A DNA stretch of 64,000 nt from NCBI GenBank assembly GCA_038046805.1, contig JBBSVO010000002.1, positions 16,684 to 80,683 of the forward strand, read 5' to 3'. Each line of letters begins with the position of its first letter. The stretch's first letter is position 1. This document shows positions 42,001 through 45,000 of this stretch, piece after piece. The position numbers were made by a program. This DNA comes from Candidatus Micrarchaeota archaeon. GTDB lineage: Archaea; Micrarchaeota; Micrarchaeia; Anstonellales; Bilamarchaeaceae.

Positions 42001-45000
42001 TCATTTCTAACACATACAAGGAAAAAATATTTGATGCGGCTTATTGATCAATATGCAGAATAAAAAATATGACATCGGCACACCATTTCCTAAGGATTGA
42101 GAATTTCGAAGAAATTCGAGAGAATTGAAATCAGCAGATTTCAATCAGAAACGCATTGTGTGTCCTGAAACCTCGTAGCTCAGGCAAACGATTCTGAAGA
42201 GCGAAGCATTGAAACTTGGCAAAGCAAGTTTCAAAATTTGAAAAAATTACATTTTTCAAAGCTCTTTGGAAGCTTTTGGCATCAGCCAAATGAGTTCACA
42301 CCAAGCATGCGGTCTGAGTCGGAAGCTTTTGGTAACAGCCAAATAGGACTTCTCCTAGCATGTTTTGTAGTGGGGAACTAAAATGTGGATATCCACATAA
42401 AGGTAGGCACTACAAAAGGCACTTGATTTGTATCTGGAAGCTGTCGAGTAGCACCCAATTTCGCGTACTTTCATTTGTCCGCCCATTCATCCCATACTCT
42501 TTTCGTTTCCGGCTCTCGCTTTCCGCAAGGCGGCTCTACTTTAATTTTTCCGTTGTCGTCAAAGAGTCTTGCATAAACCTGTCCAAGCGTTCGCTCTCCA
42601 TCCCTTTGGCGCGAGGTTGTTTCATTTATTCCGCCTCGCACGCGCGTAGCCTGTAATGCCATTATTCTTCTGCGTGTTTTTTTGTTCATAAAAATTTGTT
42701 GTCCGTAGTTTTGTGTAAACATCTATGATTTTGGGTAAACACCTTACGTAGTGATCTGCGCGAACGAAGTGAAGCGCTTTGTTACCGTGATCAACGATAG
42801 CGAAGCGCAGAAAGGGAGTAATTTCATGCTTCTCAAGACAGCCCGGCAGCGCCCCTGATTCTGACTTATAGTGATCCAAGAAAGTCTTGCGAAACTTTCT
42901 TGTCTCACTACATAGCAAACCACGCCGTCATGGCAAAGCAGCAATAGTATAGAGTCTTGCATTACTTTCGTGGTTTGCTATAAGTAAAGCGGGCTTCCCC
43001 GTTTGCCGTGAAAACCAGCTGTGTTGCCTTTTCCTTTTGAGCCAAAACGCAACATGTCCGAGACGCGAAACTCGGAACCGGAAACGCTTTTGTCTAAGCC
43101 ACGCTCCGTCGCCATACATCGGCGCTGTAGCGTGTCTGCTCCACCCTGTGAACTTACAAGCACAGAGAAATAAACTTATGGCTGCTCCTTTCGGTCTGAC
43201 CAGATTCGCGTATTCCTCTGCCATATAAGGCAGGGTTTCGACGCTTACGGAAAAGGGCGCAACAGATTCTCGCAACGCCCGGGGCATTCGGTCCGTCTAA
43301 AGGGGATTTACGGTGCCGGGACCCCTAGCCCCGACCTAGCCCAGTAAGTATATGTTATAATAAGGTAATTAAGGTTTATGTAATGGGTTTCGGGTCTTCA
43401 GTTCCGCGTTTTGGAAGATAATTATTTATGGTCTCGCATTATGTGTTCCGAGCGCAAGAGTGTTTGCTAGTAAACCTCTATGGTTTTTGGCAAGTGCCCG
43501 TCCTTGTCCTAATATATTTGAAATCCAAAAGGCTTGTGGCACGCAGATTTAAAAAGAAATTGCTCTATATTCCATCATTCGACCAGATATTTCGGGTGAA
43601 ACAATGGGACTTTTTGATAAAATTATGGGAAAAGGGGAAACAAGTTCAGACGTACCTGACCTTGAGGACATGATTGGCTCTGAAGGAGACTTAATAAGTC
43701 CGCCAGCAGACTTTTACGTGAAGAGGGTTGACCTCAGAAACGAAGGAGATGCAGACCTTGTTTTGAAAGAGCTTGGGCAGAAAAATGTTATTATTTTGAA
43801 TGTTCTTCCGCTTTCAAAGCAACCAAACAGGTTGAAATCAATTATCGCAAAGCTGAAGTCACACACTGGAAAGATTGACGGGGATATCGCATTGCTCTCA
43901 TCAGACTCAATTCTTTTGACTCCGAGCCATGTTAAAATTGTCAAATCAAAACCAAAACCCTCTGGAACAAAAATAGAGTAACCAACCAGATCGTTTCTTT
44001 CTTTTTATATTTTATTATTTTTCTTTATTTTCATTTGTTGAGCCGCGCGCAGAAGTAAGCGGGGAAAATTTCAGTTCTTTTTTAGGTAGTCCATTTCTAA
44101 AAATGTATTGTGTGGCACAAGGCCAATTACCCATAACTACCGGTTAATTATTCTTCCCATTTTCTATTTTCTCCGTCTTTGTCCCTTTTTCCTCTTTCCC
44201 GTTTCCATTGCTCTTCCCATTTTTCTCGTTCTTTCCGTTTATCACTCTTATAAAAATCTCCCCGAAAAGAACGTCCTGTTTTATATCAACTTCTTCTTTT
44301 TGCGTGAGATGAAGCACAGATAAAAGAGAATAAAGAATGTCCTTTGGTGAGCTACTTTCTACTACTCTGGAAAATATTGTCCATCCTTCCGAATCAGTTG
44401 TTGATTTTATTTTGTCAAGCGTTGTTTTCATTGTTTCTTCCAAATCATAACTGTTAAGCTTGAGATCAACGAAATCCTCGATTCCACCACGTTTTTTAAC
44501 AACGCGGTCAGTTTCATCGTATTTTATTATCCGCTCCATTTCGGAAACCAATTCCTCGAGCGTTATCTGCCTTTTTGGAGGGACGCGCGAAGGAAACATC
44601 AGTTGTGGAAGCGGTTCAATTATTCCATCCTCCTCTCCTTCCAGAGGTACAAGCACCTCCTGTTGTGGCAAGTCATACAATTTCACCACGCTACTTTTGT
44701 ATCTCAGAAGAATTGCAGATGCAAGAATTATATTTGCCGGAACGGAAAATTCCATTTTTTCCATTTCTCTTACGCGTTTTACAAAGGCGTCTGCCACGCT
44801 TTTTATATCAACATCCCAGGGGTCAACCCTTTCGGTGGAAATCAACTCAAGAAGAAGCATCTTCCAGGTTGGTTTAGATACCATTGCCTCTAGGTTAACT
44901 GCTGACATGCTCATTGTTTTCTGGTCCATTCTGATCGCCGTTGAACTGTTTATCAACTTACTCATTTAAATAACTTTTCTACGCCTTTTTACCCAAGGCG

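Follow-up and report, generated by a model that had tools for sequence, protein, structure and literature searches.

SRPs without helix 6 and SRP19 in DPANN archaea: a probable single loss, and an SRP RNA gene that appears to be split by tandem introns

Introduction

Reviews treat helix 6 of the SRP RNA, its adenosine clamp with helix 8, and the protein SRP19 as universal in archaea and eukaryotes; the clamp in particular "likely exists in all archaea" (PMC2905702). A 64,000-nt stretch of a Candidatus Micrarchaeota genome (the window; contig JBBSVO010000002.1, with all positions counted along the stretch) carries an SRP RNA gene that does not fit this picture. How did an archaeal particle come to do without these parts, and is it archaeal by descent? 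Our main reading, to which we give a probability of about three in four, is a joint one: an SRP RNA without helix 6, in genomes without SRP19, is DPANN-wide; a single loss on the DPANN stem removed both helix 6 and SRP19; and in the present genome the gene is further split by tandem introns that are spliced out.

Results

The minus-strand match to the bacterial large SRP RNA model (RF01854) reaches 66.3 bits against a cut-off of 60 and bears out the preliminary description of the locus, which had placed an SRP RNA here. Against the archaeal model (RF01857) the same RNA scores 54.3 bits, below the cut-off of 96.5, and its 3′ end is mis-parsed owing to a 99-nt insert. Because of this insert both Rfam matches end too early, at 43092–43094, and the true 3′ end lies near 42990 (Table 1). 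The stretch delimited by Rfam, folded alone, is no better than its shuffles (z = −0.76), since its 3′ end is putative intron. The RNA is about 357 nt long unspliced and about 258–262 nt spliced, and it is the only SRP RNA detected in the genome. It has the Alu domain (helices 1–4) and long helix 5 of archaeal SRP RNAs, together with a helix 8 that carries the symmetric SRP54-binding loop and a GNRA tetraloop on an apical stem one pair short of the model. The UGUNR U-turn motif has no match in the Alu domain. Upstream, an AT-rich stretch is likely to be the archaeal promoter region; a scan with a sigma-70 promoter model, which is ill-suited to archaea, returned nothing usable.

Table 1. Features of the SRP RNA locus, in window positions
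Feature	Position	Strand	Description
SRP RNA gene	42990..43346	minus	Ends approximate, set by pairing in helix 1 and comparison with the gene of the same genus
Exon 1	43136..43346	minus	Alu domain, helix 5 5′ strand, helix 8, start of helix 5 3′ strand
Exon 2	42990..43036	minus	Remainder of helix 5 3′ strand and helix 1 3′ strand
Alu (small) domain	43293..43342	minus	Helix 1 5′ strand; helices 3 and 4 with complementary G-rich/C-rich loops
Helix 8	43174..43209	minus	Asymmetric and symmetric SRP54-binding loops, 2-bp apical stem, GAAA tetraloop (43192-43189)
Helix 6 insertion point of other archaea	43213..43214	minus	0 letters here
99-nt insert	43135-43037	minus	Two tandem bulge-helix-bulge units in the helix 5 3′ strand
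Bulge-helix-bulge 5′ half	43135..43141	minus	GAGC helix strand (43141-43138) and 3-nt bulge; predicted cut 43136/43135
Putative intron unit 1, 42 nt	43094..43135	minus	Central helix GAGC/GCTT; inner stem of at least 5 bp
Putative intron unit 2, 57 nt	43037..43093	minus	Central helix GAGC/GCTC; predicted 3′ cut 43037/43036
AT-rich stretch upstream of the gene	43347..43385	minus	Likely promoter region
SepF family gene (neighbour)	43604..43981	plus	Divergent from the SRP RNA gene; no functional link claimed

In the RF01857 alignment none of the 40 model positions of helix 6 is filled, and a helix 6 with a GNAR tetraloop is absent. The consensus fold of 21 insert-free relatives, in which 58 of 71 pairs show double-sided changes, runs from helix 5 into helix 8 as a single unbranched helix. 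Thus the architecture first described, with the Alu domain and helices 5 and 8 kept and the 40-nt helix 6 gone, is confirmed. The absence had been ascribed to the order; it holds there, but its scope is far wider. Helix 6 is missing from 184 of 185 aligned Micrarchaeota SRP RNAs. The one that bears it (G036), previously the exception among 24 aligned SRP RNAs of the order, is a binning contaminant whose contig matches a 216-kb Methanomethylicia contig at 100% identity over 2245 nt. All nine SRP RNAs from other DPANN archaea that were aligned by cmscan also lack the helix. The best match falls short of 290 nt in 39 of the 40 Altiarchaeota genomes that have one, in all 58 such Iainarchaeota, in 51 of the 60 Aenigmatarchaeota, and in 91 of the 95 Nanoarchaeota. 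For these phyla the counts mostly reflect match length rather than alignment; the longer DPANN matches have inserts at places other than helix 6. As a control, helix 6 is present in 23 of 24 loci named as non-DPANN archaea. The remaining locus, in a record named Methanobacteriota, really belongs to the phylum of the Iainarchaeum genome. The absence of helix 6 is therefore DPANN-wide on the five phyla sampled, namely Micrarchaeota, Altiarchaeota, Iainarchaeota, Aenigmatarchaeota, and Nanoarchaeota. A pattern scan for helix 6-less RNAs of Nanohaloarchaeota, Undinarchaeota, and non-DPANN archaea gave bacteria only among the 80 of 120 matches listed. The SRP passages of PMC7203096 aside, which mention helix 6 once and SRP19 three times, we found neither the helix 6 loss nor helix 8 introns of SRP RNA in print.

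The protein partner of helix 6 is missing as well. The genome, which is 86% complete, has no PF01922 match at E ≤ 10, and an unfiltered profile built from four control SRP19 proteins gave no hit below E 0.17 in 14,757 six-frame ORFs, in agreement with the initial finding that it has no SRP19 gene. The initial claim that SRP19 is missing across the phylum also held, with 0 of 301 Micrarchaeota genomes (incomplete bins) over the cut-off, but was drawn too narrowly, as there is likewise none in 61, 201, and 251 genomes of three other phyla. Micrarchaeota gave eight weak PF01922 matches (E 0.007–0.07): reading those in the four shortest frames revealed other proteins or a stop-containing frame, and the other four sit inside frames of 285–1159 aa. 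A word-based homolog search with one control SRP19 reached only seven close relatives and is uninformative for DPANN. The absence of SRP19 from DPANN is known from two published supplementary tables (PMC5498576, PMC13473441). The PMC13473441 supplement gives SRP19 as 0% in all 12 DPANN groups and in Hadarchaeota too; the supplements of PMC7414124 have no SRP19 row.

Could a very divergent SRP19, or a helix 6 piece encoded separately, still complete the particle? SRP19 is short and variable, the genomes are incomplete, and the Pfam family search misses the Sulfolobus control, which had raised the concern that a divergent protein was overlooked. Against it stands a leave-one-out test, in which the other three controls retrieved each control SRP19, that of Sulfolobaceae among them, with E values of 2e-10 or better, while the same unfiltered approach was negative in this genome. 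The slot behind rps8e, which holds SRP19 in one control genome, contains no such frame here, and no genome of the four phyla has a match over the cut-off. Moreover, helix 5 pairs continuously into helix 8, so that there is no junction for a trans-acting piece. We consider a hidden SRP19 or a separate helix 6 very improbable.

The 99-nt insert, which does not appear in the preliminary description, has the features of two tandem introns. Each unit has 3-nt bulges at both junctions around a central helix of 4 bp; the background for a helix of this length between two arbitrarily chosen places is 2.5%. The outer exon–exon helix is missing (0 outer pairs), which gives the relaxed form of the motif. 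Taken as one 99-nt unit, the insert has an inner stem of just 2 bp; after removal of unit 1, the bulge-helix-bulge of unit 2 is the minimum-energy fold. Unit 1 is homologous to introns of 42 nt and 40 nt at the same site in two relatives, G002 and G147. Removing the insert gives a gap-free alignment to an intronless RNA of the same genus (G001), raises the profile score from 190 to 216, and shifts the folding z-score from −1.2 to −2.6; this excision scores best of all those tried around the insert. The genome encodes RtcB, archease, and a splicing endonuclease that matches PDB 4FZ2 over its full length (E 1.7e-137). The three-unit (epsilon-2) tRNA splicing endonuclease would cut the tandem, with unit 1 probably removed first, and RtcB would join the exons into a mature RNA of about 260 nt.

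RNA data may point in the same direction. In metatranscriptome run X16 one contig has 0 differences from the genome over 43135–43319 (exon 1), and its loose end corresponds to 43026–43035, the letters predicted for exon 2. This is one contig of one run, at a depth of about 6 and 90% likeness, and with only 10–11 letters on the exon 2 side it falls below the 31-letter bridging rule; no joint across exon 1 and exon 2 is listed for X16. The run has no RNA cover over the intron, which was not counted as evidence alone. The X16 contig is also what one would expect from a same-species allele that lacks the intron. The sole DNA run, X4, reads through the insert. Two further RNA runs, X18 and X20, were set aside: they represent an intronless relative rather than the source organism, with 7 and 8 other letters against exon 1 and other junction letters. 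The word shares of X18–X20 are small.

Bulge-helix-bulge introns occur at five sites in SRP RNAs of the phylum. Not every insert qualifies, and we did not accept as introns a 52-nt insert in G080, six Alu inserts of 15–19 nt in one genus, or several inserts in Aenigmatarchaeota. An 11-nt insert in G248 was likewise not accepted. The G080 and Alu inserts, which lack the motif, lend some weight to the alternative that the 99 nt are a retained structural expansion of helix 5 and that the RNA contig came from an intronless allele. Indeed, the unspliced RNA can adopt a fold in which helix 5 stays intact and the insert forms side hairpins, and the RNA evidence is short. However, in both units the helix and bulges lie exactly at the junction set by homology, and the same geometry recurs at the same site in G002 and G147. 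This geometry is also found in the SRP54-binding loop of helix 8 in five genomes, where retention would break the motif, and in 27 of 31 inserts at one further site, where the central helix shows compensatory changes. Finally, the intronless relatives in X18 and X20 differ from exon 1 where X16 does not. Retention of the insert is thus improbable, and it appears to be cut out in nature.

The proteins bear on descent. SRP54 scores 320 bits to Pyrococcus against 243 to the best bacterial chain, and FtsY 302 to the archaeal against 168 to the bacterial chain; by sequence similarity, both are archaeal-type. This is hard to reconcile with acquisition of the SRP system from a Bacillus-type bacterium in replacement of the old one, as might be suggested by an RNA that is over the bacterial cut-off and under the archaeal one, and by the 97 of 151 genomes of the order that pass RF01854. 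But that score gap is due to the penalty for the deletion and to the mis-parsed 3′ end. The G001 RNA, which has no intron, reaches 81.6 with the archaeal model and 79.5 with the bacterial one, and the archaeal model is best for nine of nine other DPANN RNAs (99–181 bits), which clear its cut-off although they lack helix 6. We regard horizontal transfer as extremely unlikely. The label "bacterial-type" given to this SRP at first is therefore apt for its shape but not for its descent.

Discussion

Because SRP54 and FtsY are archaeal, the likeliest origin of this particle is a single loss on the DPANN stem. Helix 6 and SRP19 would have been lost together, once, and the RNA would thereby have converged in shape on the Bacillus-type RNA. 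Convergence had been proposed from the start; the architecture agrees with it, but convergence presumes loss, which depends on where the archaeal root lies. Loss is favored by the 2026 rooting study (PMC13473441), which roots Archaea near Euryarchaeota, with DPANN as sister to TACK and Asgard, and reconstructs SRP19 with a probability of 1 for the last archaeal ancestor, against 0.3 for the ancestor of DPANN. An earlier table puts the former value at 0.9997 (PMC5498576), and both reconstructions hinge on their own root. SRP19 is dispensable in Haloferax (PMC2905702), and its loss should therefore be easy.

These same points weigh against the opposite polarity, in which the archaeal root falls between DPANN and all other archaea. 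The DPANN SRP would then have kept the ancestral form, in common with Bacillus-type bacteria; helix 6 and SRP19 would be a joint later invention of Euryarchaeota, TACK, Asgard, and eukaryotes, and the recurrent DPANN cis introns would be surviving examples of the intermediate that has been proposed for the permuted gene of Thermoproteus. The match in architecture to the bacterial large SRP RNA is what one would expect in that case, as is the lack of any helix 6 or SRP19 remnant in the sampled DPANN phyla, including Altiarchaeota genomes of up to 2.5 Mb; a DPANN root is also among three hypotheses named in PMC13473441. We hold this order of events to be unlikely. If true, helix 6 and SRP19 would serve as an alignment-free character placing the root of Archaea on the DPANN branch.

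It is useful to contrast the RNA with its known counterparts. With the archaeal 7S SRP RNA (RF01857; Methanocaldococcus, Archaeoglobus, Sulfolobus) it shares the helix 1 closure, Alu domain, long helix 5, helix 8 motif, and archaeal SRP54 and FtsY; in contrast, it lacks helix 6, SRP19, and the helix 6–8 adenosine clamp, measures about 260 rather than about 300 nt, has the 2-bp helix 8 apical stem of Micrarchaeota, and is encoded by a gene apparently split by introns. The Bacillus/Clostridium scRNA (RF01854) has the same Alu–helix 5–helix 8 layout with neither helix 6 nor SRP19, whereas here the proteins are archaeal and the RNA probably so too, the apical stem is shorter, and the introns are of archaeal kind. 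Accessory proteins of the Bacillus SRP are HBsu and YlxM.

Splicing has two close parallels. In Thermoproteus tenax the SRP RNA matures by the route proposed here, with cutting by tRNA splicing endonuclease at a bulge-helix-bulge and RtcB ligation. That archaeon has SRP19, and its permuted gene yields a circular product through a motif that joins the ends, while here the gene is in normal order with cis introns (Plagens et al. 2015, PMC4731332). That study proposes simple bulge-helix-bulge introns as an unseen ancestral state, and a cis-intron SRP RNA corresponds to the intermediate it postulates. ARMAN-2 (Ca. Micrarchaeum acidiphilum) shares the relaxed geometry, the epsilon-2 enzyme type (PDB 4FZ2), and the presence of several introns per gene in its tRNAs; the accessible part of PMC5829648 reports that epsilon-2 enzymes cut the relaxed form and names tRNA, pre-rRNA, and pre-mRNA as substrates. 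SRP RNA would add a further substrate class for the tRNA splicing machinery and would make protein targeting depend on splicing.

The particle may also work differently. SRP54 would bind the helix 8 loops directly, like bacterial Ffh, and the Alu domain would be kept as RNA only. Without the helix 6–8 clamp, the tetraloop would be left free and might tether FtsY in the bacterial fashion, a contact that in bacteria speeds complex assembly (PMC6781444). The basic patch of FtsY (K399 and R402 equivalents) is conserved here and likewise in Pyrococcus, and so does not discriminate. As a natural minimal archaeal SRP, this system allows the role of helix 6, and the possible return of the tether, to be asked about directly. 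More broadly, the absence of helix 6 is an RNA-structural character common to five DPANN phyla, among them Altiarchaeota. It can be scored in lineages of contested placement (Nanohaloarchaeota, Undinarchaeota, and Hadarchaeota) and is relevant both to the monophyly of DPANN and to the root of Archaea. It also explains a pattern of mis-annotation, in which such genes are called bacterial, fall below the archaeal cut-off, or are given wrong ends.

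Absence of helix 6

The only Rfam match in the window is an SRP RNA on the minus strand (43344–43094; RF01854, bacterial large SRP, 66.3 bits, cut-off 60), which is also the only SRP RNA match in this 1.2-Mb, 86% complete genome. The archaeal SRP model reaches 54.3 bits there against a cut-off of 96.5, and its helix-6 segment of 40 positions aligns with 0 letters, leaving a gap between 43214 and 43213. RNAalifold folds 21 insert-free relatives, kin rather than independent samples, into one unbranched rod running from helix 5 into helix 8, and 58 of the 71 pairs in the consensus fold of these related sequences show two-sided changes. 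We aligned SRP RNAs from 185 Micrarchaeota genomes to a profile made from 26 of them: 134 of the 136 matched genomes of the order, and 51 of the 86 matched genomes of other orders, picked for longest, weakest and best-scoring matches. In the 37 matched genomes outside the alignment, the matches (249–269 nt) are too short for helix 6; one of these genomes, G173, is flagged as unpublished, and it is the sole basis of no claim. Genomes without a match (20/151 and 18/151 in two samples) are uninformative. Among the 185 aligned, G036 alone has an insert of 40 nt where helix 6 would be. Because that locus shares 2245 nt at 100% identity with a 216-kb Methanomethylicia contig and a same-genus sister (G026) is without helix 6, we reject it as a binning contaminant. 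Thus, the claim of the preliminary description that helix 6 is lacking holds.

That description placed the loss of helix 6 across the order. Helix 6 is indeed absent there, but this limit is too narrow, since other Micrarchaeota orders and four more DPANN phyla share the absence. Nine SRP RNAs (three from Nanoarchaeota, one each from Woesearchaeota, Aenigmatarchaeota, Iainarchaeum and Altiarchaeota, and two from further archaea) have 0–1 letters at helix 6, yet all match the archaeal model best (99–181 bits). SRP RNA was matched in 40/41 Altiarchaeota, 58/61 Iainarchaeota, 60/61 Aenigmatarchaeota and 95/101 Nanoarchaeota genomes, and the best match is under 290 nt, a length proxy for the lack of helix 6, in 39, 58, 51 and 91 of them, respectively; one further Nanoarchaeota match, truncated where its contig ends, lacks helix 6 on inspection. 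All 13 matches above 300 nt in these four phyla owe their length to inserts at other places, mostly in helix 8, and in L360, the sole ambiguous one, the fold passes from helix 5 directly into helix 8. By comparison, the helix-6 hairpin was found, by eye or as a 38- to 41-nt insert, in 23 of 24 control loci named as non-DPANN archaea; the 24th was rejected as an exception, as it falls in the Iainarchaeum phylum. The helix-6-less SRP RNA is DPANN-wide within the five phyla sampled (Micrarchaeota, Nanoarchaeota, Altiarchaeota, Iainarchaeota and Aenigmatarchaeota). Five Aenigmatarchaeota loci (L357, L361, L362, L363, L365) have a branched extension of the helix-8 tip, or 80–90 nt extra without a clear bulge-helix-bulge (BHB) motif.

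Absence of SRP19

No genome among 301 Micrarchaeota, 251 Nanoarchaeota, 61 Altiarchaeota and 201 Aenigmatarchaeota has a PF01922 match over the cut-off, nor has any of 10 single DPANN genomes, which include the only Iainarchaeota covered. Three of four control archaea match, Sulfolobus being the exception, as do four of five further non-DPANN genomes. The concern that a divergent SRP19 could be missed is justified for PF01922, given the silence of Sulfolobus. An unfiltered profile of the four control proteins, each of which is detected by a profile of the remaining three at an E value of 2e-10 or lower, has no match below E 0.17 here (genome 86% complete). The reported lack of SRP19 matches over the cut-off, here and across the phylum, stands. 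The pattern has precedents: the available part of the PMC5498576 supplement, as the preliminary description remarked, lists SRP19 in 0 of 15 DPANN genomes, and that of PMC13473441 gives 0% in all 12 DPANN groups, each without comment there. In supplementary data 25 of the latter (row 984, arCOG01217), as far as available, Hadarchaeota is the only non-DPANN group at 0%. One euryarchaeal record (L274, genome G346) has helix 6 and no SRP19 match in its genome.

A probable tandem intron in helix 5

Both Rfam matches stop at 43092–43094, whereas the strand closing helices 5 and 1 lies at 43036–42990. The preliminary account of the gene missed a probable 99-nt intron: the gene has 99 bases more than the intronless one of G001, from the same genus. 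The insert is framed by a 4-bp helix (GAGC 43141–43138, GCTC 43042–43039; background frequency 2.5%) and two 3-nt bulges. A cut after base 2 of each bulge takes out exactly the insert and leaves a remainder that aligns to G001 without internal gap; this excision gives the best profile score among all of similar place and length (from 190 to 216 bits) and shifts the folding z-score from −1.2 to −2.6. The insert consists of two units in tandem. Unit 1 has its own BHB motif, at an energy 0.5 kcal/mol higher than that of the free local fold; this unit is homologous to the same-site introns of G002 and G147, with 0 of 2000 shuffles reaching either score. The units may be removed in order, and a single cut of the whole 99 nt would give the same product. 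The motif lacks its outer helix; epsilon-2 endonucleases are described as cutting such relaxed forms (PMC5829648, available text). The genome encodes RtcB, archease and a splicing endonuclease of this epsilon-2 type that matches PDB 4FZ2 over its whole length (E 1.7e-137). Both endonucleases have a lysine at position 161, a position that presumably has a role in the enzyme.

Of 21 sequence runs found, four were compared with the locus. A DNA contig (X4) across 42895–43559 includes the insert, with 0 differences. One 195-nt RNA contig (X16, depth about 6) has 0 differences over 43135–43319, and its loose end, GCCTTTTCCT, is 10 letters identical to 43026–43035. This end is the predicted continuation into exon 2, and the T at 43135 is the same as that at 43036. 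This is a single contig, with a short side of 10–11 letters, fewer than the 31 required for a bridge, and with no joint listed. The contig may instead come from an intronless allele in the same species; the intronless RNA in runs X18 and X20 belongs to a relative that differs by 7 and 8 letters, respectively, and also in the junction letters.

A degenerate tandem motif of 7 bases occurs in unit 2, and its copies elsewhere lie mostly in spacers and beside tRNA-like sequence; an 18-mer of it has 17 places in the genome at up to 3 mismatches, compared with 0–5 for 20 permuted motifs. ARAGORN finds 10 tRNA genes, 9 of them with introns, and RF00005 only 4 over its cut-off, as expected if most are multiply interrupted.

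Features of the SRP RNA gene, and SRP RNA introns in related genomes
Feature	Location	Strand	Remarks
SRP RNA gene	43346–42990	minus	
Exon 1	43346–43136	minus	
Intron	43135–43037	minus	predicted; 99 nt, helix 5
Intron unit 1	43135–43094	minus	42 nt, own BHB motif
Intron unit 2	43093–43037	minus	57 nt, BHB at minimum energy once unit 1 is removed
Unit-2 motif	43062–43087		
Unit-2 motif recurrences, this genome	C6:204652; C3:98124; C8:6516–6530; C2:79224; others		contigs of this genome
Exon 2	43036–42990	minus	
Helix-8 tetraloop intron site	G028, G030, G078, G151		
Helix-8 3′ strand intron site	G137		
Helix-5 5′ strand intron site	G041		
Helix-5 3′ strand intron site	this genome, G002, G147		
Other-DPANN inserts	L358, L359, L364, L366–L368, L370, L373		BHB type

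Introns in other SRP RNAs

BHB inserts interrupt 9 of 134 genes of the order at four sites, and their removal restores the consensus. At a fifth site, directly 3′ of helix 8, inserts of 15–62 nt occur in 31 of 51 examined genomes of other orders (L101–L130; families f13, f14 and f15). Of these, 27 form a BHB at one offset, and the pairs of its central helix change in a compensatory way (GCAT/GTGC 13, GTAT/GTAC 12, ACAT/GTGT 1, GTGC/GCGC 1), while four f15 inserts pair at 3 of 4 positions. Judged by these sequences, the insert is probably an SRP RNA intron that became fixed long ago. Of 18 longer matches from other DPANN phyla, 8 have BHB-type inserts; their RNAs are those of Aenigmatarchaeota, Nanoarchaeota and Altiarchaeota, and the inserts occupy additional positions within helix 8 and next to it.

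Inserts of at least 15 nt in seven genomes of the order were not accepted as introns: the 52-nt double hairpin in helix 5 of L042 (G080) has no BHB ends, and six loci of one genus (L024, L040, L041, L046, L047, L058) have 15- to 19-nt Alu-domain inserts. The G002 gene (L043) lacks 50 nt of the helix-5 5′ strand between two short repeats, reflecting either misassembly or a broken gene.

Descent and working of the particle

The observation as a whole is real, and the particle is a variant of a known one. The proposed bacterial-type large SRP is apt for its shape but not for its descent: SRP54 (C6) reaches 320 bits with the Pyrococcus chain versus 243 with the best bacterial chain, FtsY (C7) 302 in the Pyrococcus comparison versus 168, and the intronless G001 RNA 81.6 with the archaeal model versus 79.5 with the bacterial one, deletion notwithstanding. 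These scores argue for a particle archaeal in descent.

According to the available text of PMC2905702, SRP19 coexists with helix 6 and a helix 6–8 adenosine clamp is likely in all archaea. The same source reports that archaeal SRP54 binds the RNA without SRP19 and that Haloferax tolerates SRP19 deletion, so a loss would be mechanistically easy. PMC13473441, in the part available, reconstructs SRP19 with probability 1 for the last common ancestor of archaea and with probability 0.3 for that of DPANN. Given the root used there, we favor a single loss on the DPANN stem (probability roughly 0.75–0.8). Were the archaeal root instead placed on DPANN, the helix-6-less state would be ancestral, which we consider improbable.

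Most probably, a precursor of about 360 nt would be transcribed, the endonuclease and RtcB would take out the tandem intron, and the fold of the resulting 260-nt RNA would comprise the Alu domain, helix 5 and helix 8, the last bound by SRP54 without SRP19. The tetraloop, free of a helix-6 clamp, may tether FtsY by analogy with E. coli (PMC6781444, available text). Equivalents of FtsY K399 and R402 are kept in an alignment to the human chain; because Pyrococcus FtsY keeps both too, they are not decisive for the tether.

A literature search that mostly missed subscription journals found no archaeal SRP RNA described as lacking helix 6 or as carrying cis introns; one mention of helix 6 and three of SRP19 in PMC7203096 stand in passages beyond the text searched. 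In the parts available, PMC10266531 and PMC6098224 comment on neither helix-6 loss nor cis introns, and PMC4731332 goes no further than to propose that an ancestral SRP RNA had simple BHB introns; the PMC7414124 supplements contain no SRP19 row. New here are the helix-6 census over five phyla with its lone exception explained, the tandem helix-5 intron and the RNA end that agrees with it, and an intron site conserved in Micrarchaeota of other orders.

Surroundings of the locus

The helix-8 pattern of the window RNA (43194–43187) retrieves Micrarchaeota records (L150–L229); records of Trueperaceae, Holophagaceae and some Planctomycetota match it too. The helix-8 apical stem has 2 bp in Micrarchaeota versus 3 in the Rfam models and other DPANN. 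Between an adenosine deaminase gene and the SRP RNA 3′ end lie about 900 nt without a convincing gene (42064–42986), with a short imperfect direct repeat near 42267–42345. Adjacent cysteine-rich proteins without Pfam match (38969–39787 and 39747–40643) resemble by eye a third beside SRP54 (L141:44–1084). In many other-order Micrarchaeota, and in Nanoarchaeota, a tRNA gene begins a few bases 3′ of the SRP RNA (L104, L110, L116, L298, L310; by eye and Rfam), which suggests co-transcription of both.
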